64,000 bases of DNA from a bacterium (GTDB taxonomy: Bacteria; SAR324; NAC60-12): positions 4,194,201 to 4,258,200 of the forward strand of contig OZ242383.1 of NCBI GenBank assembly GCA_965209155.1, given 5' to 3'. Shown here one piece after another: positions 7,661-63,645 of the stretch; the stretch's first letter is position 1; every line of letters starts with the position of its first letter. The notes under the pieces were generated by a model. That model ran no database searches. It was not told where the DNA came from and was given only the letters and a program-made list of their open reading frames with translations. The position numbers and the translations under genes are program-made.

Positions 7661-8920
7661 CTAGACATCTTCATCCTTCTCAGTTTCCTGCTCCGATTCA
7701 GGAACTTCTTCATAGCTGACTCTGAATTCGGTTCCCTCTGTTTCGGGGTGTGAATTGGGGTACAAACGCAACAGGTCCCATTCATTTATCGACGCTCGGA
7801 CCTTGTATCTCATCCTGTTTCGATATCCCGCCCCACCTACCATGCTCTTTAATGGTGGGGCTTCCCATCCATAGGCAACGCTGTAGATTTCCCGAAGTTT
7901 TTCGACGGTCGCTTTCACGTCTTCTGCGGTCGGGGGTTCTAGTGCAATAGTCTCCTGCTCAAGGCTCCGCATACCCACTTCAGCTCTGTCCGCAGCGTCA
8001 ATATTTCCACGGGAACGCAAACGGGAACCTGCCGAGTCGAGGTCCCGCTTGCCAGTTAAAATGGCTGTAGCGAAGTCGTCAGTTACCGTGCCAGCAACAA
8101 CCAGTCCTGGACATGCTTTAGCAGAAACCTCTCCCAACCAGAAGGCCAGCTCTGCATAGGAACGAGCTCTTTGAAGTGGTCCATAAGAAGCGACTAATTC
8201 GACTTCGTCTAACAAAACAACCCAACCATTGTAGCCTGCCGCCTTGATCAACTCTGTTGCGAACCGTAGCCGTAGTGGAGGTAATTCTCTCGCTTTCGGC
8301 GCTTTGAAGGGAAAATTCTGTAACTGACCTATTGCTTTGAGGCCATCTTTTACCTTAGCCATCGCAATCCGCTCTCCCGACCAGAACGCTCTGACTTCAT
8401 TAATCAGTTCAAGATCGTTTGTCCTTTCATGGAGCATCAAGGTTGCCGGGAAAACAGGGTGCAGTTGTCCACTTCGATTGGCCCACTGAAAAAAATGCGC
8501 ATAAGCATCTGTTTCCTGTTCAAGACTGAGTCCGATTTCTTCCATAAGCTGCCCGGTTCGGTCTGGTATCCGGCCGTTGTCTATCGCGGATGTGAATACC
8601 TTAGCCTGGTCATAGAGCGGCGTCTCTTTGCTGATAGCTACTCTACTACACACAAAACCCCGCTTCAACGCCAGGTGTTCCAGATAGGAAAGCAGGTGAG
8701 ACTTGCCTGTGCCAAAATCTCCGGAAACCAATATCCCCAAGGAACGGGAAGGAGGATTATCCGGATCCGTACACTTGGCCAAGAGTTCAGTGAACTGACT
8801 TACTACTTGAGACTGACCACATCCCAATCGTTTTACCGATTCCTCATTGGGCACGCCACTCCGCAGGGCTTCCAATGCCTGCCTGCAAGAAAAAGCACTT
8901 TTATCTATATCGGTACCCAT
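7661..8920 (-). CDS. P-loop NTPase of unknown function (third gene of three-gene operon)
   Basis: 419 aa; Walker A GDFGTGKSHLL and Walker B-like VVLLDEVE; acidic C-terminal tail; 16 nt downstream of the preceding ORF. Confidence 0.7.
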   Translation of the reverse strand: MGTDIDKSAFSCRQALEALRSGVPNEESVKRLGCGQSQVVSQFTELLAKCTDPDNPPSRSLGILVSGDFGTGKSHLLSYLEHLALKRGFVCSRVAISKETPLYDQAKVFTSAIDNGRIPDRTGQLMEEIGLSLEQETDAYAHFFQWANRSGQLHPVFPATLMLHERTNDLELINEVRAFWSGERIAMAKVKDGLKAIGQLQNFPFKAPKARELPPLRLRFATELIKAAGYNGWVVLLDEVELVASYGPLQRARSYAELAFWLGEVSAKACPGLVVAGTVTDDFATAILTGKRDLDSAGSRLRSRGNIDAADRAEVGMRSLEQETIALEPPTAEDVKATVEKLREIYSVAYGWEAPPLKSMVGGAGYRNRMRYKVRASINEWDLLRLYPNSHPETEGTEFRVSYEEVPESEQETEKDEDV

Positions 8921-15885: not shown

Positions 15886-16140
15886 CCGAATGAGATCACT
15901 CCCCCGCTGAATCTCATATGAAAGCGTTCTGGCTAGAAAGTTTGGAAAAGTAGCGTTTTTTTCTTATTCAAATCGATTTTACTTTCCTTTTCGCTTGTTT
16001 CTGAAAATGGCTCGTCAACCACGCCTTTACTATCCTGGCGCGCTTTAGCATGTGAATCTTCGTGGCCATGGAGGGCAAACCTTTTTTTCTGTCCTTCCTA
16101 CTATCGACAATTTTATCACTTGCTCCCAGATGGTTCCCAA

Positions 16141-16640
16141 TGCTTTGATCACCGGATTCACGCCTTTTGCTTAATGAGCAATCGTGTTCCTCCCTACTCT
16201 CTTCCTCTTTGAAGACAGATCATTCATCAAATGGATCGAGTTTATCAACTACCGGAGAATGAATTAACCCGAGTTCGACATAAATCTTCAATAATAGGAG
16301 TATTCTGGCGTTTATGTCTTTCCGGGCGCAGACCCGAAATCCAGATTTCAGTCTGGCTGCATACCTCTGGATTCCTGGTCAAGCCAGGAATGACACGTTT
16401 TCTCTACAGTCACGAAAGTCGAGTGAAGCCCGCGCGATGATTAGCCTGTTGGCTGTCGATTGGAAGTCCGCCACTATTCGAGTAGTCGGAAAATTTTAAA
16501 TTGAGATGATTTGACGATCAGCTTTGCTATGCACCAGTTGCGACAACGATTGAAGGAATCCGAGGGTCTCCAAATTCAATTAGAGGAACTAAAACGTCAA
16601 ATACTTGCTTGAAGTTTCAAACTTTCAGGCCTGACTCCTT
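16141..16640 (+). repeat. Dispersed ~500-bp repeat, element X copy 1
   Basis: Near-identical to 18060-18556 and, over its 3-prime ~240 bp, to 21961-22200; contains an embedded REP-like hairpin unit. Confidence 0.75.
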
Positions 16641-16833
16641 TTTTTTCACTCCTATAAAGAATTTCATAAGGTGAAGTAGATGTCTGGCCTATGTAGTTCT
16701 GAAAACCGCCGTTATAGCCCATGTAAAAATTCCCGTCCAAATCGCTTGAGTAACCGGGGCGACTGTCTTTCTCAACTCGCTTTTGGTTGTCTACAAAATC
16801 GGACTGTATTTTTATTTCTCGTTTCTTCGCCAT
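16597..16833 (-). CDS. Small hypothetical protein
   Basis: 78-aa ORF with AAGGGAAAG SD, just downstream of the lipoprotein gene; last codons run into element X. Confidence 0.3.
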   Translation of the reverse strand: MAKKREIKIQSDFVDNQKRVEKDSRPGYSSDLDGNFYMGYNGGFQNYIGQTSTSPYEILYRSEKKGVRPESLKLQASI

Positions 16834-16868
16834 AACACTTTCCCTTTCAATCAGAAAATAAATCTAAA

Positions 16869-17591
16869 TCAATTCTCTTTCATAGCTTTCCAACGCTTAA
16901 AAACAAAATCCACCATAAATTTATGAATCTCATATCCTCCATAATAATCATCTCTTAATTTTTGTACCATCGCAACATTAGGAGTCACAAAATTAGAAAG
17001 GTATAACTCATCAAAACGATCCAAATTTATACGATCCACAACAACTTTAATGATAGTATGTTGTTGATTGGACCCTGATAATAACACTAATTGATCATAA
17101 CCATAAGAATCTCTTCTAATATCAAAGCTAATAAAATCCAAAGAGATTAATTCTTCTTCACGTACTAAACTGATAAGTTCCTTCCACTCTCGATCATAAT
17201 AATATGCCCCTAATCCACAACGCTTATTCACATTATCACTCCATCGAGCCACTATTATCACTCTTGAATCATCAGGATATTTTTTCTCTTCGTAAAACCT
17301 TGAATGATAACCCATTATAGGTTGACCAGAAACATCATATTCCTCAATCTGTATCACGCAACCTTCAGGAAAAACTCGCTCAATTTTTTCAAAAAAAGTT
17401 AACTCCATATCAGGTTCAATTTCTGCCTCGACCACCTCAGGTAATACAGGAACTACCACTGAATCTTTGACAGTAGGAATTTGCTGAATACCATCATCCA
17501 CTTGAACACCAGCAACCGGAGCAGTCTCTTGAACCGGCATCGCACAACCAAACAAAAAGACCACTACAAATAACAAATAAAAAATTCTCAT
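16869..17591 (-). CDS. Hypothetical lipoprotein
   Basis: 240 aa; signal peptide with lipobox (FLFGCAM); AT-rich codon usage typical of this island. Confidence 0.55.
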   Translation of the reverse strand: MRIFYLLFVVVFLFGCAMPVQETAPVAGVQVDDGIQQIPTVKDSVVVPVLPEVVEAEIEPDMELTFFEKIERVFPEGCVIQIEEYDVSGQPIMGYHSRFYEEKKYPDDSRVIIVARWSDNVNKRCGLGAYYYDREWKELISLVREEELISLDFISFDIRRDSYGYDQLVLLSGSNQQHTIIKVVVDRINLDRFDELYLSNFVTPNVAMVQKLRDDYYGGYEIHKFMVDFVFKRWKAMKEN

Positions 17592-17642
17592 AAAACTCCT
17601 GTTATCGTACCATTAATAAAAAGGGATTTGTAGGCCATGTGA

Positions 17643-17990
17643 TCAATCATCAATAAACTCCCAACAAGTTGTGTTCGTTACTGCTTCAAATACATCACAA
17701 GCAAGTATTCTTGATGAACCGCCTTTATCATCTTCAATACTTAAATGATACTCTTCTCCATTCTTACATTTAACTGCAATATATAATGCAGCAGTATTCC
17801 AATCAATCCTTCTTATAAAATATTTCGTTACTGCACAAGAGACCCCAGACGCTGGACTAGCGAGCATAGTTAGAAATCGAATTTATTCTTTTTCGCTATC
17901 TCCATAAATTTGATAAAACCAGCGATTTGCATGAATTTGAGAAAACGATAATAAAATTGAAATCAACAGATAACAAATAATCTTTTTCAT
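17643..17990 (-). pseudogene. Secreted-protein gene interrupted by an in-frame TAA stop
   Basis: A 35-codon ORF starting at ~17990 encodes a signal peptide (MKKIICYLLISILLSFSQIHA) and is in the same frame as ORF 17643..17867, separated by a single TAA. Confidence 0.4.
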
Positions 17991-18009
17991 AACACATTCT
18001 AAAGGAACT

Positions 18010-18556
18010 GAAACGTCCAATACCTACTTGAAGTTTCAAACTTTCAGGCCTGACTCCTTTTTCATTATCACCGGATTCACGCTTTTTACTTAATGAGCAA
18101 TCATGTTCCTCCCTGCTCTCTTCCTCTTTGAGGACGGATCATTCATCAAGAGGCTCGAGTTTATCAACTACCGGAGAATGAATTAACCCGAGTTCGACAT
18201 AAATCTTCAATAATAGGAGTATCCTGGCGTTTATGTCATTCCGGGCGAAGACCCGGAATCCAGGTTTCAGTCTGGCTGCATACCTCTGGATTCCTGGTCA
18301 AGCCTGGAATGACACGTTTTCTCTGCAGTCACGAAAGTCGAGTGAAGCCCGCGCGATGATTGACCTGTTGGCATTCGATTGGAAGTCCGCAACAATTCGG
18401 GAGGTCGGAAACGTTTTCAATCGAGATGATTAAACGATTAGGTTTGGAGTGCACCGCTTGAGACCACGATTGAAGGAATCCGAAAGTCTCCAAATTCAAT
18501 TAGAGGAACTGAAACATCAAATACTTGCTTGAAGTTCCAAACTTTCAAACCAGACC
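18010..18556 (+). repeat. Dispersed repeat, element X copy 2 (with tail of an additional copy at its 5-prime end)
   Basis: Aligns with 16141-16640 along nearly the full length; the tail motif CTTGAAGTTTCAAACTTTCAGGCCTGACTCC is present at both ends. Confidence 0.75.
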
Positions 18557-18713
18557 TTGGTACTCACCAATCCCCGCGATATCTGACCGGGTGGAACGAT
18601 ATTCCTTCATCCGGCATTATTTCCAATTTATTTAAATGTTCCTATTATTGAATCAGTCTTTTTATCATAGACCTCAATTGTAGTTGCCAAAATAAACATT
18701 CTGAAATTTTCAT

Positions 18714-19040
18714 CTAATTCACTTCACCTGATAAAATAATTATACAATCATTACTACTGAATAGTCCTGAACGGCAATTTTTATTAAAATAATCCATAAA
18801 ATTTTTTCGGCCAATTCGGCTTAATATATCGGCACTTGCTCGAAGTGTATATCCATCAGATTGTACATCAAAATAATCATTTACTGATAATTTATCAGCA
18901 AAATAACTTGTTGTTCCTGCAAATTTAATCTCGTATCCTATTGACGCAAAATCAAAGGTATAGTCCTTTAATGTGGTTCTAAAAGGTTCGGCTTGAATAA
19001 TATTTACAAAAATTAAACCGATTAAAATATTTAAAGACAA
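18714..19040 (-). CDS. Small secreted hypothetical protein
   Basis: 108 aa with N-terminal signal peptide (MSLNILIGLIFVNIIQA). Confidence 0.45.
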   Translation of the reverse strand: MSLNILIGLIFVNIIQAEPFRTTLKDYTFDFASIGYEIKFAGTTSYFADKLSVNDYFDVQSDGYTLRASADILSRIGRKNFMDYFNKNCRSGLFSSNDCIIILSGEVN

Positions 19041-19104
19041 ATAAACGTTTCATATTGTATTCTCCATATTGAAGGTATTTCAAAATCGATCCAAAATTAT
19101 CAAT

Positions 19105-19455
19105 TCAAACTGAGATTGATTCTTTTTTTTTCTTAGGTTCAATTATTGCCAGGACACCACCTATAAAAGCTAAAACCATAAAAATCGCTACTATCGTACC
19201 ACCTAAAATTGCACCTACAATCGCACAAAGACATGTTATAATTCCCGGGATTCGGCTGTTTGAAGTTAAAGTAATTGCTCCCATAACTATGGTAAGAAAA
19301 GAAAAGAGAACTCCACCCCAGCCGAGACCGATTACTGTATTCGCCCCTTCCGCTTGAAAGGCACCGCCTATTCCACCTATGAATAAAGTTGCACCGGCAG
19401 CAAATACACTGAAAATACCTGCAATTATTGCAATAATTCCTCCTGCTTTTCTCAT
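19105..19455 (-). CDS. Glycine-rich small integral membrane protein
   Basis: 116 aa, three to four hydrophobic segments rich in small-xxx-small glycine motifs, lysine-rich C-terminal tail. Confidence 0.5.
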   Translation of the reverse strand: MRKAGGIIAIIAGIFSVFAAGATLFIGGIGGAFQAEGANTVIGLGWGGVLFSFLTIVMGAITLTSNSRIPGIITCLCAIVGAILGGTIVAIFMVLAFIGGVLAIIEPKKKKESISV

Positions 19456-19525
19456 ATCATCTCCTTTCTGTTATTTTTGCGTCAATAGAATCCATTCGAT
19501 TCTGCCAGAAGTTCTACTTCACGAA

Positions 19526-19822
19526 TTATTTTCTCCTTTTGAAATCTTCTTTGATGACCCGGAACACGTATCTCATCTCGTCCTCAGACTTTTTCCCGAA
19601 ACGTTTTGCCATCCTGTAACCGAGATTAGTCCACGTCAATTTTTTTAATGCCAGTTTCCCAATTTCTTTTTTATTTAAAATTAGATTATTCCAAGAAAAA
19701 ATAAAATTTTCTAAATGCTTATTAGTTGGATTTTTGTTCGTAACATCCTTTACAAACTCTTTATCCAAAGCCAAGCGTTCCAGTTCAGCCAACACTTGCA
19801 GGTGAGTCACTTCTCGATTCAA
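19526..19822 (-). CDS. Small protein, member of local paralog family (LTW-x-LGY-x-M motif)
   Basis: 98 aa; shares a conserved C-terminal core with ORFs 20760..21020 and 21020..21286; a fragment of its 5-prime end is repeated at ~20490-20600. Confidence 0.5.
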   Translation of the reverse strand: MNREVTHLQVLAELERLALDKEFVKDVTNKNPTNKHLENFIFSWNNLILNKKEIGKLALKKLTWTNLGYRMAKRFGKKSEDEMRYVFRVIKEDFKRRK

Positions 19823-19834
19823 TTTGACCTCTTT

Positions 19835-20326
19835 TCACAATTCATTTTTTACTATTTCCTGAATAATTTTTTTAAATCTCTTAAATTCAATCTTTAATTC
19901 TTGTATAGTTTTATCTAATTCAACCATGTTCTTTCTGGAATTCATTTTAAATTCTTCATACGTCATATCAGGATCATATGTAGGTGATAATCGGACACTA
20001 ATAAAAAGAAGAACAAATGAACAAATAAAAACAACAAATGCTCGCTTTCGAGTTGGCAAGTACAAACGAGAAATGGGGTACAACATACAAATAAACGATA
20101 TTATACTAATGATCATAAAGACAAATACTAAAATAATACTTATTTCTTCCATTGTAGGTGGTAATTGGACACTAATAAAAAAAAGAACAAATGAACAAAT
20201 AAAAACAACAAATGCCCGCTTTCGAGTTGGCAAGTACAAACGAGAAATGGGGTACAACATACAAATAAACGATATTATACCAATGATCATACAGACAAAT
20301 ACTAAAATAATGCTTATTTCTTCCAT
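19835..20326 (-). CDS. Membrane protein with internal tandem duplication
   Basis: 163 aa; a ~58-aa unit with a transmembrane helix (MEEISIILVFV...RKRAFVVFICSFVL) occurs twice, from a direct ~186-bp DNA tandem repeat; opposite-strand ORF 19926..20594 judged a shadow. Confidence 0.45.
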   Translation of the reverse strand: MEEISIILVFVCMIIGIISFICMLYPISRLYLPTRKRAFVVFICSFVLFFISVQLPPTMEEISIILVFVFMIISIISFICMLYPISRLYLPTRKRAFVVFICSFVLLFISVRLSPTYDPDMTYEEFKMNSRKNMVELDKTIQELKIEFKRFKKIIQEIVKNEL

Positions 20327-20759
20327 AAATTACCTGTTTTTATTACAACCTAAATTGAGCGATTCTTTTCAAGAAATGGATTTTTCAGATGATTATTGTG
20401 CCCAAGGAATCGAATCATTGAGATATAAGCATTTGATCATCAAATTCATGGAAGTTCGGGTCAGAATGGATCTCAAGTTGATGTTTTCGGCTGTGGGGAA
20501 ACTTCATTTCTCATGCTATGCACACACTCATCCTCAGCCAGGCGTTCCAGTTCAGCCAACACTTGCAGGTGAGTCACTTTTCGATGCATTTTGACCTCTT
20601 TTCACAATTCATTTATTAGTATTTCCTGAATAATCTTTGCTTCACGGCATTCTTTATCTCGTGTTACTTCTTCCAAGCGCTTTAATTCTTTTATCGTGGA
20701 GACAGCGAAAATGACTTATTTCCCGGTGAATTTGAATTCCGTTCTTTTCAGGTATATAT

Positions 20760-21020
20760 TCATGATTTATCTGAATATTCATCAGCCAGGATGCGATAGG
20801 CATAGTCAATGTCTTCCGGATCTTGAGTTTTAAAATACCTGCCCATTTCGTAACCCAGACTGATCCACGTAATATAATTTAAATCAACCGTATCCAATCT
20901 TTTCCCTTTCCAGCCATCACGGAATGCTGATTGTTTATCCTCCGTAGGTGGCTCACGATTATCGGCAAATTTTTCCTCTTGTAATTCCCGAAGACGATTT
21001 AATACATTTTGATATCTCAT
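20760..21020 (-). CDS. Small protein, paralog family member
   Basis: 86 aa; NLTWxSLGYEMG...DPEDIDY...RILADEY core shared with its tandem neighbour. Confidence 0.5.
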   Translation of the reverse strand: MRYQNVLNRLRELQEEKFADNREPPTEDKQSAFRDGWKGKRLDTVDLNYITWISLGYEMGRYFKTQDPEDIDYAYRILADEYSDKS

Positions 21021-21286
21021 TATTCCCTATTATTTTTTGAATATTCATCAGCCAGGATGCGATAGACATAGTCAATATCTTCCGGATCTTGAGTTTTAAA
21101 ATACTTGCCCATTTCGTAACCCAGACTTTTCCACGTGAGGTTATTCGGATTTAATCTTGATATTCCTTTTCCAAACCATGCTTGTCGAAATGCTGATTGT
21201 TTATGCTCCGTAGGTGGCTCACGCTTTTCGACAGGCTTTTCCTCTTTTAATTCCTGAAGACGATTTAAGATTTCTGAATATTTCAT
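21020..21286 (-). CDS. Small protein, paralog family member
   Basis: 88 aa; tandem with 20760..21020, overlapping stop/start (translational coupling). Confidence 0.5.
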   Translation of the reverse strand: MKYSEILNRLQELKEEKPVEKREPPTEHKQSAFRQAWFGKGISRLNPNNLTWKSLGYEMGKYFKTQDPEDIDYVYRILADEYSKNNRE

Positions 21287-21383
21287 AATTCTCCTTTATC
21301 TTTAAGATTTTTCCTTAGGATTTTAAGCAGATATAAAACGTTTTGATATCTGCTTGGTACTCCTTAGAATTAAGATTTGAATA

Positions 21384-21700
21384 TAAAAAAACACTTGAAA
21401 AAATTTGCAAAAGGAGATTGAGCTGGGTTAGTATTTTTGATTGCCGAAAGGAGGATATAAAAAAAGCCCGTCTTCCCTCATGGGAAAATTCTTGAAAAAC
21501 ATTGCCGTGTTTCTCAAGGATATGATGGGTGTCCTGCTCCTCCTTTGGCCTTCTTGCTTTCCTGTCATTTCCTCCCTTTCATCGATGACCGGGCGGCCAA
21601 CTCACTGGGTCTTTCCCTTTTTACCAGGTTATCGATGACGCCAGCAAACTTGGTTTCCGTGTTGGTGAACCTTTTGTTAAGGAAAAAGAAGTTAAGAAAT
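21384..21700 (+). repeat. Dispersed ~320-bp repeat, element Y copy 1 (promoter-like)
   Basis: Shares with 22915-23250 and 25317-25650 a TTGCAA-N17-TAGTAT-like motif followed by an 11-bp inverted repeat CCAAAGGAGGA ... TCCTCCTTTGG about 85 nt apart. Confidence 0.65.
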
Positions 21701-21960
21701 CTGGTTCAATTTATCTTTCAGATCCGATACCTGTTCCGATGAAATTGGAATTGAAAATTCCCCATAAGGAATATTTGACATGGGTACAGGATGAGAGAGT
21801 GGCTTCCTGGGCCGAATCAAAAGCATTTTAGAATTTTCTTCATCTTCTTTAATACTGACATCTGCTTCAAATTTAACATTCAACGTTACTTGTGAATTTT
21901 TATCCATATTTATCTTCTTTTTTTTTGAAATCGATATTGATTAATTTTTCTCTGTACTTT

Positions 21961-22200
21961 TGAAGGAGTTGAGTAAAACCCGCACGATGATTGGCTCGTT
22001 GGCTTTCGATTGGAAGTCCGCAACGATTTGGGAGATCAAAAAATTTGCAATCGAGATGATTCTATGATCAGCATTGGAATTCGTCGGTTGAGACCAAGAT
22101 TGAAGGAATCCGAGGGTCTCCAATTTCAATTAGAGAAACTGAAACGTCAAATACTTGCTTGAAGTTTCAAACTTTCTGGCCTGCCCCCTTTTCAATATGA
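21961..22200 (+). repeat. Element X copy 3 (3-prime ~240 bp only)
   Basis: Aligns with the 3-prime half of 16141-16640. Confidence 0.65.
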
Positions 22201-22213
22201 AAACTAAAGAGAT

Positions 22214-22891
22214 TTAAAGACCTGTAATGAATAGAATGAAATAACCATCATATTTAATTAATTTTTCAATTCCATAAGTAGGGATGCCTATAGTAAAATC
22301 AGAACGAACCTCCATAGAATTTGTTTGAGTAGGAACGTCATTAATATAAACACCAAAATAACCGATTGATAGAGGTCTTTCATACGGAATTATTTTGAAT
22401 CGGATTTTAAAATCTGATAATTGAATAAATGATGCAGCAGATGATTCAAAAAAACTTTCCATTTTCACACGTAGTTCGGGGGGGAAATGTAAACCTAGCG
22501 TCCTAACGCCTTCATCATTAGGGAAATAAGTAATATTAATTATTTCTTCATCAACATATTTACCATCCCTTTCTTTATCTAAAAAAGCGGGAATCGAAAA
22601 AGAGACCATATGTTTAAATAGTCCTTTTTCTTCACATCCTAAATATTCTGCCCCTTTGAAAATAAAAGGAATTTTTGCTTGTAATTCAAAAACTGTATCT
22701 TCTGGCAAATTACTTTTGCTCTTAGTACATCCCTGAACTTCAATATTCATAATTCCATTAACCTCTATCGGATCTGTCCCTTCTTTAGCAAAATTAGCGA
22801 GGTCGATTTCCATAAATAAATCTAGATCACAACCTGAAATCAAAACTACAATTAATAACAAACCCAATATGCTGAAAATTGACTTTTTCAT
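22214..22891 (-). CDS. Hypothetical lipoprotein (paralog of 23258..23911)
   Basis: ORF 22214..22903 trimmed to MKKSIFSILGLLLIVVLISGC (lipobox); GGAG SD upstream. Confidence 0.55.
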   Translation of the reverse strand: MKKSIFSILGLLLIVVLISGCDLDLFMEIDLANFAKEGTDPIEVNGIMNIEVQGCTKSKSNLPEDTVFELQAKIPFIFKGAEYLGCEEKGLFKHMVSFSIPAFLDKERDGKYVDEEIINITYFPNDEGVRTLGLHFPPELRVKMESFFESSAASFIQLSDFKIRFKIIPYERPLSIGYFGVYINDVPTQTNSMEVRSDFTIGIPTYGIEKLIKYDGYFILFITGL

Positions 22892-22914
22892 ATCAAACTC
22901 CAAATATAATTTAT

Positions 22915-23250
22915 CAAATAATACTTAAAAAGTTTGCAAAACAGGATTGACAGGGTTAGTATTTTTGGTTGCCAAAGGAGGAAATAAAAAAGCCCGTCCT
23001 CCCTCTTTGGGAATTTCTTGAAAAACATTGCCGTGTTTCTCAAGGATATGATGGGTGTCCTGCTCCTCCTTTGGCCTTCTTGCTATCCTGTCATTTCCTT
23101 CCTTTCCTTAAAGACCGGGCGGTAAACTCACCGTGTCTTTCCCTGTTTACCAGGTTATCGATGTTGCCAGCAAACTTGGCTTCCATCTTTGTAAATCTTT
23201 CGCAATCTCTTCCGCTTTCCGATGAATCATTTCAGAAATTTTCTGTCATT
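22915..23250 (+). repeat. Element Y copy 2
   Basis: See 21384-21700; lies between the two paralogous lipoprotein genes. Confidence 0.65.
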
Positions 23251-23257
23251 GAAATTG

Positions 23258-23911
23258 TTAAAAATTGTATGATTGAGTACTGAATACGACAAATTCCTTC
23301 ATTTCATTTGATAACAAAACCCTTGTCCCGTAATGGGGTATTCTTACAGAGAACTCAGAATTCAGTGTAGTATCTATAAATTGGTATGGTTTATCATTCA
23401 AATACACTCCCATTCCTTTTACATTCAATGGAGTCAAATCGGGTAAGATTTGGAATTTTATATTAATATCATCCATTTTTATTTCATCAGACGCAGATAT
23501 TAACAAATTCAATTTCCCTTTTAATCCTGGAGGAAATGAAAAAATTAATTCTCTTTCACCATTTTCAAGTTTAAAATATTCTAAATTTGATATTTCATCA
23601 TCCACTGGTTTGTCATTGTCATTATTATCAATATAAACTGGAATTTCAAATAACAAGTAATAGTCAAAACCCGAACGATCACAATCCTCATATTTTGCCC
23701 ATTTGAAGACATAAAGTAATTGTTCTTTTAATTTACTGACATCATCACTATCACACACATTAACTTCCACTGCCAATCGACCTTTTATAAGAGTTGATTT
23801 ACCATCATCAGTAAATAGATTGAGATTAACTGGTATATCAATAAAAATATCACAACTGGCTATAACTAAAGATATTACTAGTAATTTTATACAACAAACA
23901 ATCTTCCTCAT
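23258..23911 (-). CDS. Hypothetical lipoprotein (paralog of 22214..22891)
   Basis: ORF 23258..23956 trimmed to MRKIVCCIKLLVISLVIASC (lipobox); shares domain order and several motifs with the neighbouring lipoprotein. Confidence 0.5.
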   Translation of the reverse strand: MRKIVCCIKLLVISLVIASCDIFIDIPVNLNLFTDDGKSTLIKGRLAVEVNVCDSDDVSKLKEQLLYVFKWAKYEDCDRSGFDYYLLFEIPVYIDNNDNDKPVDDEISNLEYFKLENGERELIFSFPPGLKGKLNLLISASDEIKMDDINIKFQILPDLTPLNVKGMGVYLNDKPYQFIDTTLNSEFSVRIPHYGTRVLLSNEMKEFVVFSTQSYNF

Positions 23912-24106
23912 AAGACATTCTCCATGAAAATAATTGCAAATGAATATGGTCAGCATAGTAAAAATTGAAATTGTTCTTGAAGCTATTCAATTTGAAGAAA
24001 AAATTATTTTTGGCTGAGCTGCTTGAAATCGGATTCGCCCAACGTTTAGCTTCAATTGTTTTTTTTTGGAAAAATCCCCAGCTCAATCAACAAACTATCA
24101 TCTCCT

Positions 24107-26189: not shown

Positions 26190-26650
26190 ATGTCATTCCT
26201 GTGCAAGTGGGAATCCAGGGAATCGAAATGACCCCTGGATTCCGGGTCTTCGCAAGGAATGACACATTCTTGGATTCGGGGTCTTCGCCTGGAATGACAT
26301 CCTCCTGGATTAGCGGTATTCGTTTGGAAAGACACGTTCATGGATTCCTGGTCTGTGCAAGGAATGACACATTCTTGGATTACTGGTCTGTGCCAGGAAT
26401 GACACATTCTTGGATTACTGGTCTTCGCCAGGAATGACACATTCTTGGTGTGGTGTTTTTCGCTTGGAATGACACGTTCCTGGATTACTGGTCTTCGCCA
26501 GGATTGACATCCTCCTGGATTAGTGGTATTCGCCAGGAATAACACATTCTTGGATTAGTGGTATTCGTTTGTAATGACATGTTCCTGGATTTCTGGTCTT
26601 CGCAAGGAATGACACGTTCCTGGATTCCTGATCTGTGCAAGGAATGACAA
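26190..26650 (+). repeat. Tandem array of ~12 REP-like 35-bp hairpin units
   Basis: Contiguous degenerate units of consensus TGGATTCCGGGTCTTCGCCAGGAATGACACATTCT, each with an internal inverted repeat; no unique spacers. Confidence 0.8.
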
Positions 26651-33853: not shown

Positions 33854-34075
33854 GTCATTCCTGGCTTGACCAGGAATCCAGTGTTGGTAAGGATTTCCTG
33901 GATTCCGGGTCTGCGCCAGGAATGACACACTCCTGGATTCCCGATTGCAGGGGCCAGGACATTTTCGTTCCCCTGGATTCCGGGTCTGGGCCAGGAATGA
34001 CTCACTCTTAGATTCCTGGTCTGCGCCAGGAATGACTCACTCTTGGATTCCGGGTCTGGGCCAGGAATGATACTC
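33854..34075. repeat. Tandem array of REP-like hairpin units (about 6 units, mixed orientation)
   Basis: Units such as GTCATTCCTGGCTTGACCAGGAATCCAG and CTGGATTCCGGGTCTGCGCCAGGAATGAC. Confidence 0.8.
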
Positions 34076-34094
34076 TCCCGAAAACGTCCTTTAC

Positions 34095-43790: not shown

Positions 43791-43835
43791 AAGCGCAAGC
43801 CGTCCTCGAATTCCCAAAGAGAGAAGCCCAACATC

Positions 43836-44042
43836 CCCTGGATTCCGGGTCTGTGCCCGGAATGACAACACTAACGCCGCCTGGATTCCGGGTCTGCGCC
43901 CGGAATGACAACACTGACATCCCCTGGATTCCGGGTCTGTGCCCGGAATGACAACACTGACATCCCCTGGATTCCGGGTCTGTGCCCGGAATGACAACAC
44001 TGACATCCCCTGGATTCCGGGTCTGTGCCCGGAATGACAACG
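43836..44042 (+). repeat. Tandem array of five 43-bp REP-like hairpin units
   Basis: Near-identical units CCTGGATTCCGGGTCTGTGCCCGGAATGACAACACTGACATCC, each with inverted repeat ATTCCGGG / CCCGGAAT; no spacers. Confidence 0.85.
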
Positions 44043-44399: not shown

Positions 44400-45818
44400 A
44401 TGTCTGATAAAACGAAGTTGCATTTGCATGATCACACAAATCACGAAGTGGACAGCGAACTGAAAAAAGATTTCGAACAAAACCTGGAAAATGATTTCAC
44501 GGAAATGGAATGTTATTCCAGCCATCCTGATGAAGATCATCATGAAGAACACGCCCGGTCACCCGAAGCGATCATGGGAGACGTGATTGAAGATTCTATC
44601 ATGAAAGCCGTGATACCGGATGCGATGACTCGCAGAACGTTGATCGACCGCCTGGGAAAAGGAGCGGCAGCGGCGTTGGTCGCTTCTTTTTTTCCGTTGG
44701 ACGCGGCCAGGACCCTGGCAACGGAACCGGTAAAAGATATCGAAAAGAAAGATCTCAGCATTGGATTCATCCCCATTACCTGCGCCACGCCCATCATTAT
44801 GGCGGAACCGATGGGATTTTATGAAAAGTATGGATTGAATGCCAAAGTCCGGCGCGCAGCCGGGTGGGCCATGGTGAGAGACTGGGCCATCAATAAAGAC
44901 GTGGACGCCGCACACATGCTCAGCCCGATGCCGCTGTCCATTTCCTTGGGGGCAGGGTCTAAAAAAGTGCCTTTCTTCATGCCTGCCGTGGAGAACATCA
45001 ACGGACAGGCGATTACCCTCCACAAGAAGCATTCCGGAGTGAAGGAAGCCAAAGACATGAAAGGATTTCGATTCTGCGTCCCCTTTCGTTATTCGATGCA
45101 CAACTACTTGTTGCGCTACTACCTGGCGGAAGGTGGAGTTCACCCGGACAAAGACGTACAAATCCGCGTGGTCCCCCCTCCGGAAATGGTGGCCAACCTG
45201 AAAGCGGAAAACGTGGACGGTTACCTCGCGCCGGATCCTTTCAACCAAAGGGCCGTCTATGAAAATGTGGGTTACATTTACAAACTGACGAAAGACATTT
45301 GGGATGGACATCCTTGTTGCGCCTTTGCCATTTCAAAAGAATTCACGACCACCTATCCCAATACCTTCCATGCCCTTTTTAAATCGATTGTCGATGCCAC
45401 TCATTTTTCCTCGGACAAATCCAACCGGAGGGATATCGCCAAAGCAATTGCTCCCAAAAATTATTTGAACCAGCCCGTCATTGTCCTCGAACAAGTGTTG
45501 ACCGGGCGTTTTGCCGATGGATTGGGCAAAATTCAAAACGTACCGGATCGTATCGATTTCGATCCCTTCCCCTGGCATTCGATGGCCGTCTGGATTCTGA
45601 CCCAAATGAAACGTTGGAAACACGTCGAAAGCGATTTTGACTATCACCAGGTGGCGGAACAGGTCTACCTGGCTGGCGAGTGTGATCAATTTATTGAAGA
45701 ACTCGGTTACGAAAAACGGGGAAAGACTTACCGGAAACACGTCATCATGGGCAAAGAGTTCGATCCGGGCAAACCCGAAGAGTATATGAAGAGTTTTCCG
45801 ATCAATAATTTATCTTGA
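44400..45818 (+). CDS. Nitrate/cyanate/bicarbonate-type ABC transporter substrate-binding protein (NrtA/CynA-like) with Tat signal
   Basis: 472 aa; twin-arginine motif (TRRTLIDRLGKGAAAALVA) preceded by a ~75-aa His/acid-rich extension; first gene of the cluster with permease, cynS and ATPase. Confidence 0.7.
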   Translation: MSDKTKLHLHDHTNHEVDSELKKDFEQNLENDFTEMECYSSHPDEDHHEEHARSPEAIMGDVIEDSIMKAVIPDAMTRRTLIDRLGKGAAAALVASFFPLDAARTLATEPVKDIEKKDLSIGFIPITCATPIIMAEPMGFYEKYGLNAKVRRAAGWAMVRDWAINKDVDAAHMLSPMPLSISLGAGSKKVPFFMPAVENINGQAITLHKKHSGVKEAKDMKGFRFCVPFRYSMHNYLLRYYLAEGGVHPDKDVQIRVVPPPEMVANLKAENVDGYLAPDPFNQRAVYENVGYIYKLTKDIWDGHPCCAFAISKEFTTTYPNTFHALFKSIVDATHFSSDKSNRRDIAKAIAPKNYLNQPVIVLEQVLTGRFADGLGKIQNVPDRIDFDPFPWHSMAVWILTQMKRWKHVESDFDYHQVAEQVYLAGECDQFIEELGYEKRGKTYRKHVIMGKEFDPGKPEEYMKSFPINNLS

Positions 45819-45874
45819 GAGGGATCGCACTTCTTCCTGCAATCCATCAAATCGTACCATAGAGAAGCCCTGTC

Positions 45875-46774
45875 ATGCAATATTTGATAAAAATATATAA
45901 AGAGTATCTCGGTCCATTGTTGCTTTCACTCGTCATCTTATTGGTTTTCCTGGGAACCTGGCATGTCGTGACCAAGGCACCGGCCTTCGATCCATCCGGC
46001 TACACGGAAGAAGAACTGGTGACGATGGAATTCAATGGCGACCTCGTTCGTGACGCGAACGACCAGTATATTTATAACCCAGATAAGCCTCGAGGAATCC
46101 CGGGACCGGCCAAGGTTTATGAAAAGTCGGTGGAGGAACTGCAGGAACCCTTTCACAAAAAAGGGACGAATGATCACGGGATTGGCTTTTTGATGCTATA
46201 CACCATTCAACGTTTCCTGAGCGGATTCGTGGCGGCCTCCGTGGTTGCGGTCATTTTAGGGGTGATCATTGGTTTGTCCAAGGCTCTTTTCACGGCGCTC
46301 AATCCTTTTATTCAAATCCTCAAACCCATCTCGCCCCTGGCTTGGATGCCATTGTTGCTCTACAGCGTGCAAGATCCGGTTTGGACCGCAATCCTGGTGG
46401 TTTTCATGGCAGCCTTGTGGCCCACTGTCGCCAACACCGCATTCGGCGTCAGTACGATGCGGCAAGATTATCTCCGTGTTGCCAGTCTGCTCGAGATGAA
46501 TTTTTTTCGCCGGCTTTTTTTAGTCATCCTCCCTGCGGCAGCCCCTGCCATTATCGCAGGTCTGCGAATCTCGTTTGGTAGCGCGTTGGTCGCGGTCGTC
46601 CCTGCCGAGATGCTCTTGGGAGAACTGGGCATTGGATATCTCAGCTGGATTGAATGGAATAACCTGGACATCAGCGGCGTGATCTTTGCCATCATCATGG
46701 TGGGCGCCATGGGATTTCTCTTGGATAGCGCCTTTGTCAAAATGGCAAACGCAGTGAGCTATCCTGAATCTTAA
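45875..46774 (+). CDS. ABC transporter permease (NrtB/CynB-like)
   Basis: 299 aa, multi-pass membrane protein with permease-type loop, directly downstream of the SBP. Confidence 0.75.
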   Translation: MQYLIKIYKEYLGPLLLSLVILLVFLGTWHVVTKAPAFDPSGYTEEELVTMEFNGDLVRDANDQYIYNPDKPRGIPGPAKVYEKSVEELQEPFHKKGTNDHGIGFLMLYTIQRFLSGFVAASVVAVILGVIIGLSKALFTALNPFIQILKPISPLAWMPLLLYSVQDPVWTAILVVFMAALWPTVANTAFGVSTMRQDYLRVASLLEMNFFRRLFLVILPAAAPAIIAGLRISFGSALVAVVPAEMLLGELGIGYLSWIEWNNLDISGVIFAIIMVGAMGFLLDSAFVKMANAVSYPES

Positions 46775-46799
46775 TAATGAAATAATAGAAAGAGGAACT

Positions 46800-47243
46800 A
46801 TGTCGAGACAAGAAGTAACTGAAAAATTGTTGGACGCGAAAAAGAAAAAAGGCGTCACTTTTGAAGAAATCGCAGCTGTGGTCGGAGGAGACAAAGTGTG
46901 GATCGCGTCGGTGATGTTCGGACAAAACAGCATGGAAGCGGAACAAGCGAGGAATCTCGCGGAATACCTGGAGCTGGGAAGCGACGTTGCCGAATCGATC
47001 CAGGAATGTCCGATGAAAGGGGACCTGAACCAGACGGTTCCCATCGATCCCCTCATTTATCGTTTTTACGAAATCACCCAGTGCTATGGGAGCAGTATGA
47101 AAGCCATCATACATGAAATGTTCGGGGACGGTATCATGAGCGCAATCGATTTCAGTATCGATATCAGCAAAAAAGAAGATCCCAAAGGAGACCGGGTGGT
47201 GGTCACCTTTGATGGAAAATTTTTACCCTATCGTAAATGGTAA
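46800..47243 (+). CDS. cynS: Cyanase (cyanate hydratase)
   Basis: 147 aa; C-terminal half (IDPLIYRFYE...GDGIMSAIDF...KFLPY) matches CynS closely. Confidence 0.9.
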   Translation: MSRQEVTEKLLDAKKKKGVTFEEIAAVVGGDKVWIASVMFGQNSMEAEQARNLAEYLELGSDVAESIQECPMKGDLNQTVPIDPLIYRFYEITQCYGSSMKAIIHEMFGDGIMSAIDFSIDISKKEDPKGDRVVVTFDGKFLPYRKW

Positions 47244-47810
47244 GTCATCACCACCGGCAGAGCCGGTGGCTTGAAGAGGCCCCCAGTATGAGGGCAAAAC
47301 GTGTTCGTCATCGTAAGACGTGCTCGTGCTCGTGAACGAAAAAGGCTGCCATGTTAGATCATGAAAAACTCGATGTATACCAATGTTCCATCGAATTTTT
47401 AGCGTTATCTGTCCAAGTCATCGAAACATTGCCAAAAGGATACTCAGCCTTAGTTGACCAACTGAAAAGGGCCTCATGGTCGATTCCTCTCAATATCGCA
47501 GAAGGCTGTGGAAAAAATTCCTTTGCTGACAAGCAACGATTCTATGCATTGGCCCGAGGTTCCGCAATGGAATGCGCTGCTATTCTCGATGTTTTAAACG
47601 TGTTGAAGATCATCCAGCCTCCTTTATTTGACGAAGGGAAACAGTTACTTCATCGCATTGTTTCTATGTTAACCAAAATGTGCCGTCAAATTCACTGACC
47701 GTTCACGAGCACGAGCACGGCTAACGGACACGGATACGTTTCTCATGTCTGACCGGCAAAGCCTATTAGGTTCGCACCAGCAGAGCTGGTGGTTTAATGA
47801 GATTAATTAT
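47244..47810 (+). mobile_element. IVS-like cassette carrying four-helix-bundle protein gene (copy 2, intact)
   Basis: Begins immediately after the cynS stop; palindromic ends (CCACCGGCAGAGCCGGTGG and ACCAGCAGAGCTGGTGG) and long inverted stem arms GTGCTCGTGCTCGTGAACG / CGTTCACGAGCACGAGCAC flanking the ORF. Confidence 0.7.
47351..47698 (+). CDS. Four-helix-bundle protein (23S rRNA intervening-sequence protein family)
   Basis: 115 aa; hallmark motifs LDVYQ, QLKRASWSIPLNIAEG, ARGSAMECAAILDVL. Confidence 0.8.
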   Translation: MLDHEKLDVYQCSIEFLALSVQVIETLPKGYSALVDQLKRASWSIPLNIAEGCGKNSFADKQRFYALARGSAMECAAILDVLNVLKIIQPPLFDEGKQLLHRIVSMLTKMCRQIH

Positions 47811-47868
47811 TGAAGACATACACCGAATTCAGGTTGGTTACTTCACGATAAATAAAGGAGAGAATCCG

Positions 47869-48750
47869 ATGTCATTTTTAAATATCGATCATGTCACCAA
47901 GGTCTTTCCACTCTTGGATAGTAAAATCAATCAAGGTGAGACCTTCGTGGTTTTCCAGGACGTCGACTTGAAGATCAAGGAGGGTGAATTCGTCACCATG
48001 ATCGGCCATTCCGGCTGTGGCAAAAGTACCTTGCTCAACATCATTGCAGGTTTTGACAGCGCCACGGAAGGAGGAATTGTTTTGGACGACAAGGAAATTA
48101 CCAAACCCGGTTTGGATCGCATGGTGGTCTTTCAAAACTTTGCCTTGATGCCATGGATTTCAACCTTCGAGAACGTTCGCATCGCGGTGCGTTCGGCCCA
48201 CCCGGATTGGAGTAAAACCAAAGTGAGAGACTGGACGCAAAAATATATCGACATGATGAGTCTCAAAGGCGCGGAGCGCAAGAAGCCCGCCTTTTTGTCG
48301 GGGGGAATGCGACAACGGGTCGGTTTGGCCAGGGCATTTGCAGTGGAACCCAAAGTGCTGCTCCTCGATGAACCCTTTGCGCAAATCGATGCTTTGACTC
48401 GAGGAGCCATTCAAGAGGAATTGATTCGTATGTGGACCGCAACCCGGAACACAGTCTTTATGGTCACTCATGACGTGGATGAAGCCATTTTGCTTTCCGA
48501 CCGTATCGCTTTGATGACCAATGGTCCCAATGCTGAATTGGCCGAAACCCTGGAAGTCACCATCCCCCGGCCTCGCTCCCGGGAACGCCTGATCGACTCA
48601 CAGGATTACATCGAGATCCGCAGCCATATTCTTCGTTTTCTGGTAAAGGGTTCCAAACGAGTGGATTTTGATTTAACAGCGCCACCTCCGCCTGCAGAAC
48701 CCGAAAAGGATTGCTCCGGAGAGAAAATCGCCATTCCTTCAGCAGCTTGA
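47869..48750 (+). CDS. ABC transporter ATP-binding protein (NrtD/CynD-like)
   Basis: ORF trimmed to ATG at 47869 (AAAGGAG SD); Walker A GHSGCGKST, ABC signature LSGGMRQR, Walker B LLLDEP. Confidence 0.8.
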   Translation: MSFLNIDHVTKVFPLLDSKINQGETFVVFQDVDLKIKEGEFVTMIGHSGCGKSTLLNIIAGFDSATEGGIVLDDKEITKPGLDRMVVFQNFALMPWISTFENVRIAVRSAHPDWSKTKVRDWTQKYIDMMSLKGAERKKPAFLSGGMRQRVGLARAFAVEPKVLLLDEPFAQIDALTRGAIQEELIRMWTATRNTVFMVTHDVDEAILLSDRIALMTNGPNAELAETLEVTIPRPRSRERLIDSQDYIEIRSHILRFLVKGSKRVDFDLTAPPPPAEPEKDCSGEKIAIPSAA

Positions 48751-49107
48751 TTGCACGTCGTCCGGATTCCTGTTCAATCCAGGAATGACACATAGAAAAT
48801 TGTCATACCGGACTGGATCCGGTATCCGGGTTTCGTGCCGCTTTCCTGCAATCCCCTTTGCGCCTTTGCGCCTCTCCTTTGTGCCTGGCACCTGACGTCA
48901 GTTTTCCAACTGTCAATAAAAGGAGCCCTCTCGTTCAAAAGAATTGAATTTGCAATTTCAAGTGTGCTACAAATTATTCTTCTTCTAGTCGGTTCTGAAC
49001 CAGTAAACCATTTCGTTTCCCGCAGGAAGTCCCAGAGTGTTTCTCGTATGGATAACGGTTTTTTACTGACAGGACCCCGGTAAAATATGAATAATGAGGA
49101 GTAATTT

Positions 49108-61986: not shown

Positions 61987-63060
61987 TCAGCTCCGCTGTA
62001 GCATTTTGCCTTTGAAACGCATCAACCAGATAAAAAAAGGTGCTCCCGAAAAAGCAGTGAGGATGCCGATCGGGAGTTCCTCGGGCGATAAGATCACCCG
62101 GGCCAGCACGTCTACCCAGATAAGAAAGATCGCACCAAACAAAAAGCCGATGGGCAGCACTTTTTTGTGGTCGGAGCCGAAGCACAATTTGACGATATGG
62201 GGCACCAGCAGTCCGACGAATCCAATTGTGCCGCTAACGGCCACCAACACGCCTGTCAGTAGAGCGCTGATAACGAAGAGCAGGTTGCGCAAGCGCGGTA
62301 CGTCGACTCCCAACGTAGACGCCGTTTCCGGACCAATGAGCAAGGCATTCATCGCCCGGGAACGGGTCATCAAAAAAAAAGCGGCCAGCGCCAATGCCAG
62401 CAACGGGACTCCCAATTGTTCCCATTGCGCGTTGCCCAACCCCCCCAACATCCAAAACAGGACCTGACGCGCGGCACTGTGGTTACTCGCTTGGAAAATC
62501 AGAAAATTGGTGACCGATGAAAACACGAATGCCGTCGCAATCCCTGCCAGGATCAATCGAACGGGGGAAAGTTGTCCGGACTGTTGGGCAATCAGGAATA
62601 CCACCACCAGGGCCAGCAATGCGCCTGAAAAGGCAGCGAGAGGAAGCGCGAATGGCCCGAGCATCGAGGCGCCGAAAAGAATCACGCAAACGGCGCCCAC
62701 CGAAGCCCCGGAGGAGATTCCCAACAAGTAGGGATCGGCCAGGGGATTGCGCACCAGCGTTTGCATGGTGATTCCCACCAACGTCAAACCCGCCCCGACA
62801 ATGGCCCCTAAGAATACCCGGGGCAAGCGAATATTCCAGACAATCCCATCCTGAAAATCCGGCCAGTCTTTTGCGATCCAATCCGGAAAAAACGGGTACA
62901 GTACGATTTCCCAAACCCGGACGACCGGAATAGAGACCGAGCCGATGGCGACGGCCAGTGAAAATGACAACAACAACCCGATTACCAATACCGCAGTCAC
63001 CTTTGCGCCTTTGTGCCTTTGCGCCTTTGCGCCTTTGTGCCTGGCAAAAAAATGTTCCAT
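61987..63060 (-). CDS. FecCD-family ABC transporter permease
   Basis: 357 aa polytopic protein with FecCD-type sequence; the listed N-terminus is encoded by a simple GCGCAAAGG repeat, so the true start is probably further downstream. Confidence 0.75.
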   Translation of the reverse strand: MEHFFARHKGAKAQRHKGAKVTAVLVIGLLLSFSLAVAIGSVSIPVVRVWEIVLYPFFPDWIAKDWPDFQDGIVWNIRLPRVFLGAIVGAGLTLVGITMQTLVRNPLADPYLLGISSGASVGAVCVILFGASMLGPFALPLAAFSGALLALVVVFLIAQQSGQLSPVRLILAGIATAFVFSSVTNFLIFQASNHSAARQVLFWMLGGLGNAQWEQLGVPLLALALAAFFLMTRSRAMNALLIGPETASTLGVDVPRLRNLLFVISALLTGVLVAVSGTIGFVGLLVPHIVKLCFGSDHKKVLPIGFLFGAIFLIWVDVLARVILSPEELPIGILTAFSGAPFFIWLMRFKGKMLQRS

Positions 63061-63079: not shown

Positions 63080-63645
63080 TAATTGATCTCATTAAACCAC
63101 CAGCTCTGCTGGTGCGAACCTAATAGGCTTTGCCGATCAGACATGAGAAAGGTATCCGTGTCCGTGAGCCGTGCTCGTGCTCGTGAACGGTCAGTGAATT
63201 CGACGGCACATTTTGGTTAACATTGAAACAATGCGATGAAGTCACTGTTTCCCTTCGTCAAATAAAGGAGGCTGGATGATCTTCAACACGTTTAAAACAT
63301 CAAGAATAGCAGCGCATTCCATTGCGGAACCTCGGGCAAATGCATAGAATCGTTGCTTGTCAGGAAAGGAATTTTTTCCACAGCCTTCTGCGATATTGAG
63401 AGGAATCGACCATGAGGCCCTTTTCAGTTGGTCAACTAAGGCTGAGTATCCTTTTGGCAATGTTTCGATGACTTGGACAGATAACGCTAAAAATTCGATG
63501 GAACATTGGTATACATCGAGTTTTTCATGATCTGACATGGCAGCCTTTTTCGTTCACGAGCACGAGCACGTCTTACGATGACGAACACGTTTTGCCCTCA
63601 TACTGGGGGCCTCTTCAAGCCACCGGCTCTGCCGGTGGTGATGAC
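63080..63645 (-). mobile_element. IVS-like four-helix-bundle cassette (copy 3, reverse orientation)
   Basis: Same terminal palindromes and stem arms as 47244-47810, in inverted orientation. Confidence 0.7.
63242..63538 (-). CDS. Four-helix-bundle protein, C-terminally truncated by nonsense codon
   Basis: 98 aa, near-identical to 47351..47698 but a TTA to TGA change ends it 17 codons early. Confidence 0.6.
   Translation of the reverse strand: MSDHEKLDVYQCSIEFLALSVQVIETLPKGYSALVDQLKRASWSIPLNIAEGCGKNSFPDKQRFYAFARGSAMECAAILDVLNVLKIIQPPLFDEGKQ

Follow-up and report, generated by a model that had tools for sequence, protein, structure and literature searches.

We analysed a 64,000-nt stretch of a SAR324 genome (lineage NAC60-12; GenBank assembly GCA_965209155.1, contig OZ242383.1, positions 4,194,201–4,258,200 of the forward strand), hereafter the window, which contains three copies of a small cassette with a PF05635 gene, i.e. 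a gene for a four-helix-bundle protein of the kind known from intervening sequences (IVSs) in 23S rRNA. The CcmF encoded in the window shares 74–75% identity with proteins of SAR324-cluster metagenome-assembled genomes, which fits a host related to SAR324. The cassette is a discrete 562-nt insertion without target duplication, with the motif YAAT at one end and with an occupancy that varies between strains. It is very probably a non-autonomous member of the IS200/IS605 family, a 'mobile insertion cassette' in which the PF05635 gene takes the place of the transposase gene tnpA and which is moved in trans. The original prediction, made from the sequence of the window, saw a selfish, IVS-like element that is possibly excised at the RNA level; the mobility evident here is at the DNA level, from empty sites, the missing duplication and a fixed target.

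Insertion sites and boundaries of the cassette

Sequence reading and alignment identified three copies in the window: one intact (copy B), one nonsense-mutated and inverted (copy C) and one internally deleted (copy A), essentially where the original prediction had placed them:

1431–1738, + strand: copy A, 308 bp, both end hairpins retained; target ATTA at 1739–1742
47244–47805, + strand (that of the open reading frame, ORF): copy B, the complete 562-bp cassette; limits from the empty sites in L029 and L030 and from the alignment of copies
63084–63645, − strand: copy C, 562 bp, a pseudogene (ORF 63538–63191, premature TGA at 63244–63242); target ATTA at 63083–63080

Copy C differs from copy B at a handful of positions, one of them being the change of TTA to TGA within the ORF, and copy A lacks 254 nt from the middle of the full cassette (deletions of 248 nt and 6 nt). 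The terminal hairpins are confined to these three copies in the window, with 0 expected by chance.

According to Pfam, the gene order around copy B is substrate-binding protein, permease, cyanase (cynS), cassette and ABC ATPase, the cyanase gene lying between the permease and ATPase genes of a cyanate cluster that spans 44400–48750. Two contigs from other samples (L029 and L030), found by exact look-up of the CynS sequence, encode a CynS identical to that of the window and have the same cluster order free of the cassette, with a cynS–ATPase spacer of 63 nt. Their flanks are 97–99% identical to the window, and BLAST joins position 47243 directly to 47805 with nothing repeated, which shows that there is no target duplication. 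From the comparison of the window with these empty sites, the inserted segment is 47244–47805 (562 nt, with a 1-nt ambiguity of one A). The closing 4 nt of the ~566-bp unit of the original prediction (47244–47810), ATTA at 47806–47809, are target and not element. The polymorphism is reciprocal: beyond its ATPase gene, L029 has the start of a cassette directly after ...ACATAGAA, and the corresponding stretch of the window, TAGAAAATTG, is free of any insert:

48795–48805, no strand assigned: unoccupied target TAGAA/AATTG, filled by a cassette copy in the sister strain L029

With extra copies obtained via close protein relatives, we were able to compare nine independent insertion sites, all with exact common boundaries. 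The flank at the GTCATC end differs from site to site, and the opposite flank reads (A)ATT[A/G] in 8 of the 8 sites where it is seen, corresponding to 5'-YAAT(T)-3' on the other strand. The targets are TAAT (seven sites) and CAAT (one site); the ninth, also CAAT, is read from the unoccupied site of the window, and YAAT is present in both empty sites. This pattern is typical of IS200/IS605 elements: their left end adjoins a short, constant motif, and insertion takes place 3' of it.

Copy C is located between an upstream gene on the same strand (ending near 63668) and a FecCD permease gene (61987–63060), co-oriented with both neighbours, all three being on the − strand. Copies B and C both lie between genes, in keeping with the earlier description of a discrete, multi-copy selfish element that sits between operon genes. 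That description was to be given up if there were no further copies and no stable stem; nine sites and a stable fold (see below) were found, and since further copies exist it stands on this point.

End hairpins and transposase-encoding relatives

The ends of copy B contain the following features (LE, left end; RE, right end):

47244–47247, − strand: RE cleavage motif GTCA (reverse complement TGAC), from the guide/cleavage rule
47251–47269, − strand: RE subterminal hairpin, CCACCGGC-AGA-GCCGGTGG read on the + strand, from the single-stranded DNA (ssDNA) fold and the guide/cleavage rule
47270–47273, − strand: RE guide CTTG (reverse complement CAAG), from the guide/cleavage rule
47279–47295, no strand assigned: second, degenerate hairpin GCCCCCAGTATGAGGGC, perfect in L031 (GCCCCC-AGGAT-GGGGGC)
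47775–47791, − strand: LE subterminal hairpin, CACCAGC-AGA-GCTGGTG read on the + strand, 7-bp stem, z=−5.3 (ssDNA fold of the top strand), homologous to the LE hairpin of TnpA-encoding elements
47793–47796, − strand: LE guide TTTA (reverse complement TAAA), which predicts the target under the IS608 rule
47806–47809, − strand: target, or transposon-adjacent motif, ATTA on the + strand and 5'-TAAT-3' on the top strand, abutting LE and present in the empty site

Both end hairpins fold as ssDNA and have the loop AGA on the same (+) strand; they are therefore in direct orientation, and there is no terminal inverted repeat. The 'palindromic ends' of the original prediction are real as hairpins, but they are two separate hairpins in direct orientation and not mirror images of each other. 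We infer that the transposition-active 'top' strand of copy B is the − strand. The degenerate hairpin at 47279–47295 is homologous by position to one that autonomous relatives have just after the stop codon of tnpA.

In IS608, the guide is formed by the 4 nt on the 5' side of the hairpin foot and pairs with the cleavage motif as C1-G2, C2-G1 and C4-G4, the third base being unpaired (PMC3201880). We applied this rule to the strand on which tnpA would be sense. For LE, it predicts TAxT from the guide TAAA, and TAAT is found; for RE, it predicts TGxC from the guide CAAG, and TGAC is found as the terminus of the element. Across eight related elements, guides and cleavage motifs change together, with the cleavage/guide pairs TAAT/TAAA, GAAT/TCAA, AAAT/TTAA and TAAG/TAAC at left ends and the guide/cleavage pairs CATT/TGAA, CATA/TGAT and CAAG/TGAC at right ends, and we take this covariation as strong evidence for functional transposon ends. 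Among multi-copy relatives, similarity begins exactly at the predicted cleavage motif.

The ends also link the cassette to transposase-encoding elements. When one genome per species was scanned, the 21-mer CACCACCGGCAGAGCCGGTGG (47249–47269, including the RE hairpin) was found exactly in 28 loci from many phyla. Ten of them (L001, L002, L005, L010, L015, L017, L018, L020, L025 and L027) adjoin an IS200 tnpA, the hairpin being located just past the stop codon of a ~140-aa Y1 transposase gene on the opposite strand. For this transposase, the NCBIfam IS200 equivalog model gives 134 bits (cutoff 55) and the model for RAYTs (tyrosine transposases associated with repetitive extragenic palindromic, or REP, sequences) gives 31.5 bits, under the cutoff of 80; relatives of the transposase carry PF01797. 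Metagenome-assembled genomes (MAGs) of Phycisphaerales, Planctomycetota, Clostridia, Blastocatellia and Bacteroidales contain multi-copy elements of ~620 bp that have CACCACCGGCAGAGCCGGTGG as a terminal hairpin; we delimited these elements by aligning copies within one Phycisphaerales and one Planctomycetota MAG. The opposite end of these elements has a hairpin of the same orientation, CACCGGCA[A/G]AGCCGGTG or CACCGCCAGAGGCGGTG. Gene-less derivatives of ~290 bp are also found (L003, L024 and L028). Inside its hairpins, the cassette retains short stretches homologous to those that border tnpA in the autonomous elements, the second hairpin among them; in effect, the stem-ORF-stem unit has taken the place of tnpA, in opposite orientation. 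None of the 28 hairpin loci has the whole cassette in the scan, and none has a PF05635 gene nearby by tblastn with the PF05635 protein.

The mechanism would then be a known one (IS200/IS605 'peel and paste' in trans), and what is unusual is the cargo. A Y1 (HUH) TnpA encoded elsewhere in the genome would bind both hairpins of copy B on its minus strand, at a time when replication leaves this strand single-stranded at the fork. The left end would be cut 3' of TAAT and the right end 3' of TGAC. A single-stranded circle with the junction ...GGTGGTGATGAC/TAATCTCATTAAACC... would be released and inserted 3' of another TAAT. The internal inverted repeat may unite both ends in ssDNA and thereby help excision; on a transcript, the ~60-bp helix around the ORF could be a target for RNase III, splitting the operon mRNA. 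Trans-mobilisation of this kind has been proposed for palindrome-associated transposable elements (PATEs) and for tnpB-only elements (PMC10055086).

Several observations weigh against this reading. There is no tnpA in the 64-kb window or in the 3–6 kb around six related copies, and none of the best 120 relatives of the L025 transposase is on a cassette-bearing contig. The 'empty' sites are open to two readings, as sites before insertion or as products of a scarless excision; both fit the model, which does not discriminate between them. The cleavage positions are ambiguous by 1 nt, and some autonomous relatives share 1–3 bases past the predicted right-end cut. Finally, a long internal inverted repeat is foreign to the IS200/IS605 family.

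Among related cassettes, one (L033, 2925–4438) has an ISL3-family element inside its left-end hairpin region with ~9 bp duplicated, i.e. a nested transposon. A 70%-identical relative in a Pseudomonadota MAG (L034, 2330–3000) is flanked by genes for a glycosyltransferase and an ABC exporter. Its arms are of the hexamer type (ACGTAC / CGAGCA units), and only one side has a degenerate hairpin, CACCGGC-TAT-GCCGATG, which may be a decayed IS200-type end.

The PF05635 gene, its stem and alternative explanations

The inner part of copy B consists of a gene between two complementary arms:

47300–47338, no strand assigned: left stem arm of CGTNNN hexamer-like units, with a perfect 19-nt arm at 47320–47338
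47351–47698, + strand: gene for a four-helix-bundle protein of 115 aa (PF05635 / TIGR02436)
47700–47739, no strand assigned: right stem arm of NNNACG units, with a perfect 19-nt arm at 47700–47718

The ORF of copy B matches PF05635 (23S_rRNA_IVP; Pfam, E=5.8e-24) and the NCBIfam family TIGR02436 'four helix bundle protein', which bears out the earlier claim of an IVS-type gene within a long stem. It is the only ORF of the cassette, which has no tnpA, tnpB or iscB of its own. Among sequence relatives, a structure has been solved only for Xanthomonas XCC0516 (2GSC). Exact sequence look-ups of the copy B protein and of P0014 and P0046 matched no record. The 90% identity protein cluster nearest to the copy B protein has 200 distinct members, and at least six variants of it, some truncated, are encoded on a single contig of 4,258,857 bp.

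Among copies that differ by at most 3%, the ratio of nonsynonymous to synonymous polymorphism (pN/pS) is scattered about 1 (range 0.35–2.2); between the window lineage and the 84–85% (L033) or 70% (L034) identical lineages it is 0.17–0.25. The resident copies therefore decay neutrally, with the transposing lineage being conserved. Copy number and decay pattern match a transposable element, and the selection pattern suggests that the protein serves the element rather than each locus. By analogy with the related Avd protein, one might guess that it binds nucleic acids.

The 19-nt arms GTGCTCGTGCTCGTGAACG / CGTTCACGAGCACGAGCAC directly flank the ORF, and their 15-mer core occurs six times in the window (0.03 expected); like the terminal hairpins, the arm motifs are confined to the three copies. 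Folded as RNA, the unit forms one long interrupted helix (−189.5 kcal/mol, z=−5.0, equalled by 0 of 100 shuffles), confirming the stable stem around the ORF that had been proposed. The arms in the window are of a hexamer type (CGTGTT CGTCAT ... CGTGCT CGTGCT CGTGAA), and this type is widespread in the family. We scanned metagenome contigs with an alignment of PF05635 relatives, which gave 80 loci with proteins 46–68% identical; 45 of the 80 have a long inverted repeat round the ORF made of tandem hexamers with CGT every six bases (e.g. CGTTGA/CGGCGA, TCGTCC x6, and GACGTG x8 or more). These inverted repeats are 30–120 bp long, with CGT on one arm and ACG on the other every 6 nt, and the hexamer varies by lineage at constant periodicity (examples are L042, 100–200 and 540–640; L098, 40–200 and 545–720; L058, 1395–1430 and 1842–1880). 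We know of no description or explanation of such CGT-periodic hexamer arms.

In the 80 loci, no IS200-type hairpins or direct hairpin pairs were found around the PF05635 genes, a few trivial matches aside; the IS200 ends are therefore specific to the lineage of the window. No locus of the 80 contains rRNA, and Rfam reports no family at threshold, and no rRNA, in the window. The view that the family is usually found inside 23S IVSs is thus not borne out here; it mirrors the name of the family, not its distribution. In one locus (L112, 372–416), the Acido-Lenti-1 RNA motif (RF01687; 37.9 bits, threshold 37) is located ~250 nt upstream of the PF05635 gene. Of the Pfam families encoded next to the 80 relatives, transposase domains are the most frequent. 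At least 11 of the 80 loci (L045, L067, L036, L042, L050, L056, L059, L063, L064, L080 and L105) have an IS5-family transposase (DUF4096 + DDE_Tnp_1) adjoining the PF05635 cassette, which occurs in either orientation. In L045 (35–1454) and L067 (145–1560), the cassette follows the stop codon of the transposase gene and precedes the right terminal inverted repeat, and is therefore inside the IS. With IS200/IS605 ends here and IS5 elements in relatives, the PF05635 module is found in at least two unrelated transposon families; our literature searches for a link between PF05635 and transposons found no paper.

The cassette could instead be an IVS-type element that acts at the RNA level, its stem being a substrate of RNase III and the cassette being removed from the polycistronic transcript, with the way in which the DNA spreads left unspecified; we consider this unlikely as an account of the copies. 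The long stable stem encloses the ORF, and the protein belongs to the same family as those encoded in 23S IVSs of Coxiella and Leptospira, where RNase III cuts the IVS stem (PMC4990558); the stem of the cassette is a plausible RNase III substrate. There is no promoter or terminator consensus within copy B, which makes read-through from cynS the likely source of a transcript. Against this model, there is no rRNA context in the window or the 80 relatives, and RNase III cleavage leaves the mRNA unjoined: a cut would sever the transcript, not excise the cassette and rejoin the ends. If the stems were maintained as sense-strand RNA, G-U should outnumber A-C among their transition mismatches; in 47 cassettes (the 45 relatives and two close relatives) the counts are 112 G-U against 131 A-C, so that nothing points to selection for a stem in the sense RNA. 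Compensatory changes between the arms, sought in close relatives, were not found; the arms drift independently, as in L033, where the left arm has changed to GAA units and the right arm is unchanged. DNA mobility with IS200/IS605 hallmarks is directly seen. An RNA-level activity is compatible with transposition by IS200/IS605 ends, yet it leaves the copies unexplained.

Somewhat less doubtful, though still improbable in our view, is a model in which the PF05635 gene with its hexamer repeat is itself mobile and entered a gene-less IS200/IS605 derivative (a PATE) once, the IS ends being incidental. The ORF-plus-hexamer-stem unit is found family-wide without IS200 ends among the 80 relatives, and the association of at least 11 of them with IS5-family elements, in both orientations, suggests repeated capture. 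However, both IS ends and the exact boundaries are common to all nine copies of the lineage, the 84%-identical L033/L117 branch included, and the present spread is therefore that of the composite. Neither boundaries nor a target signature were found for an inner unit moving on its own; the model concerns origin and is compatible with IS200/IS605-type movement today. A broader version, which we offer tentatively and with more doubt than belief, has the PF05635 gene and its hexamer repeat as a widespread hitch-hiker module that repeatedly colonises unrelated transposons and is kept by aiding the transposition or retention of its carrier, possibly with the protein binding the hairpin of its own repeat. 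Very improbable, by comparison, is a reading of the end hairpins as REP sequences served by a domesticated RAYT, with the PF05635 gene lying between two REPs and copied by recombination or duplication. REP hairpins are recognised by Y1 enzymes akin to TnpA, and some of the transposase relatives are labelled 'REP-associated tyrosine transposase' by the Joint Genome Institute (JGI). Yet there are no solo hairpins in the 64 kb, only paired cassette ends; a whole 562-nt block with exact shared boundaries is found at nine unrelated sites; and the transposase encoded beside the identical hairpin is above the cutoff of the IS200 equivalog (134 bits) but below that of the RAYT model (31.5 against 80), and is part of a bounded, multi-copy ~620-bp element. 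We give next to no credence to a remnant of a diversity-generating retroelement (DGR), with the protein as the accessory factor Avd: PF05635 does take in the Avd proteins of DGRs (PMC10053308), but copy B has cyanase and ABC ATPase genes as neighbours and copy C an ABC permease gene (FecCD) downstream, no reverse transcriptase is encoded beside any copy, and the only repeats of the cassette are copies of the whole element.

Other repeats of the window and comparison with known systems

The window contains a second repeat family, a palindrome of 35–43 nt (..CCTGGATT..CCAGGAATGACAC..) that is arranged in tandem, with at most 12 copies per array (26234–26649, 33896–34078, 43831–44041 and 48760–48791), and that also occurs singly (16384, 18303 and 28048). 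Its 13-mer core has 15 matches (0.1 expected), almost all on the + strand, and the family looks like REPs or bacterial interspersed mosaic elements (BIMEs). The additional cassette copy of L029 is inserted right beside one such unit. Two places, 63000–63042 and 48850–48880, contain tandem repeats of the 8-nt unit CCTTTGCG (opposite strand, GGCGCAAAG); the first is where the FecCD gene adjoining copy C has its 5' end, and the second is downstream of the cyn ATPase gene. The stretch 16000–24000 has a low GC content (33–38% vs ~51% elsewhere), no ORF longer than 250 aa and tandem duplications (174 nt x2 at 19979–20326; 266 nt x1.9 at 20772–21268), and is probably a foreign or decaying island. We note a BrxC/BrxD-like ATPase gene at 7661–8920. 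PADLOC reported no defence-system match.

The origin and mobility of the PF05635 'IVS protein' gene have been debated since the 1990s, and the cassette offers a concrete, testable link to a transposon: the gene appears to ride in a defined single-strand DNA transposon of known chemistry, under purifying selection along the element lineage. It would also be a new type of cargo for IS200/IS605 elements, besides tnpA, tnpB and iscB; an Arc-family repressor is named as a further cargo in a passage of one preprint. Such elements can settle between working operon genes, here those for cyanate utilisation and for an ABC importer. For annotation, genes of 'four helix bundle protein' flanked by hairpins deserve a check for IS ends, and assembly breaks are to be expected at PF05635 cassettes because many relatives are on sub-kilobase contigs. 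If the hitch-hiker idea were true, ORF-containing 23S IVSs would be one particular instance of it, in which a transposon has carried such a module into rRNA, and the 30-year-old question of IVS origin would be answered.

Among known systems, the cassette resembles the Avd of DGRs in its small helical-bundle protein of PF05635, and differs from it in having neither a reverse transcriptase nor template/variable repeats and in its unrelated genetic context. The likeness to the ORF-containing 23S IVSs of Coxiella burnetii and Leptospira goes further: the protein family is the same, the complementary termini form a long stem around the ORF, the size is similar (428 nt for the Coxiella burnetii IVS with S23p; PMC4990558), and both are regarded as selfish. 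The Coxiella paper left two hypotheses unresolved, that of a transposition remnant and that of a mobile element whose ORF aids mobility (PMC4990558). Unlike these IVSs, the cassette lies outside rRNA, has IS200/IS605 ends beyond its stem and shows evident DNA transposition.

Mobile insertion cassettes (MICs), described for IS231 in the Bacillus cereus group, consist of IS ends round a passenger gene and have no transposase. Like MICs, the cassette combines functional IS ends with a non-transposase gene and would depend on a transposase supplied in trans; unlike it, MICs derive from a DDE-transposase IS with terminal inverted repeats and target duplications, whereas the cassette would use single-strand Y1 chemistry. 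The closest comparison is with the IS200/IS605 family itself (e.g. IS608). The cassette differs from its members in having neither tnpA nor tnpB/iscB and yet not being gene-less, its cargo being the PF05635 gene, and in its ~60-bp internal inverted repeat; the distance between cleavage site and hairpin is 13 nt at LE and 7 nt at RE, compared with 19 and 10 in IS608. It shares with the family the subterminal hairpins of same orientation, the lack of an inverted repeat at the tips and of a target duplication, the insertion 3' of a fixed tetranucleotide at the left end, the guide/cleavage pairing, a hairpin identical to that of TnpA-encoding relatives and, very probably, movement by a transposase supplied in trans, which has been proposed for PATEs and for tnpB-only elements (PMC10055086).

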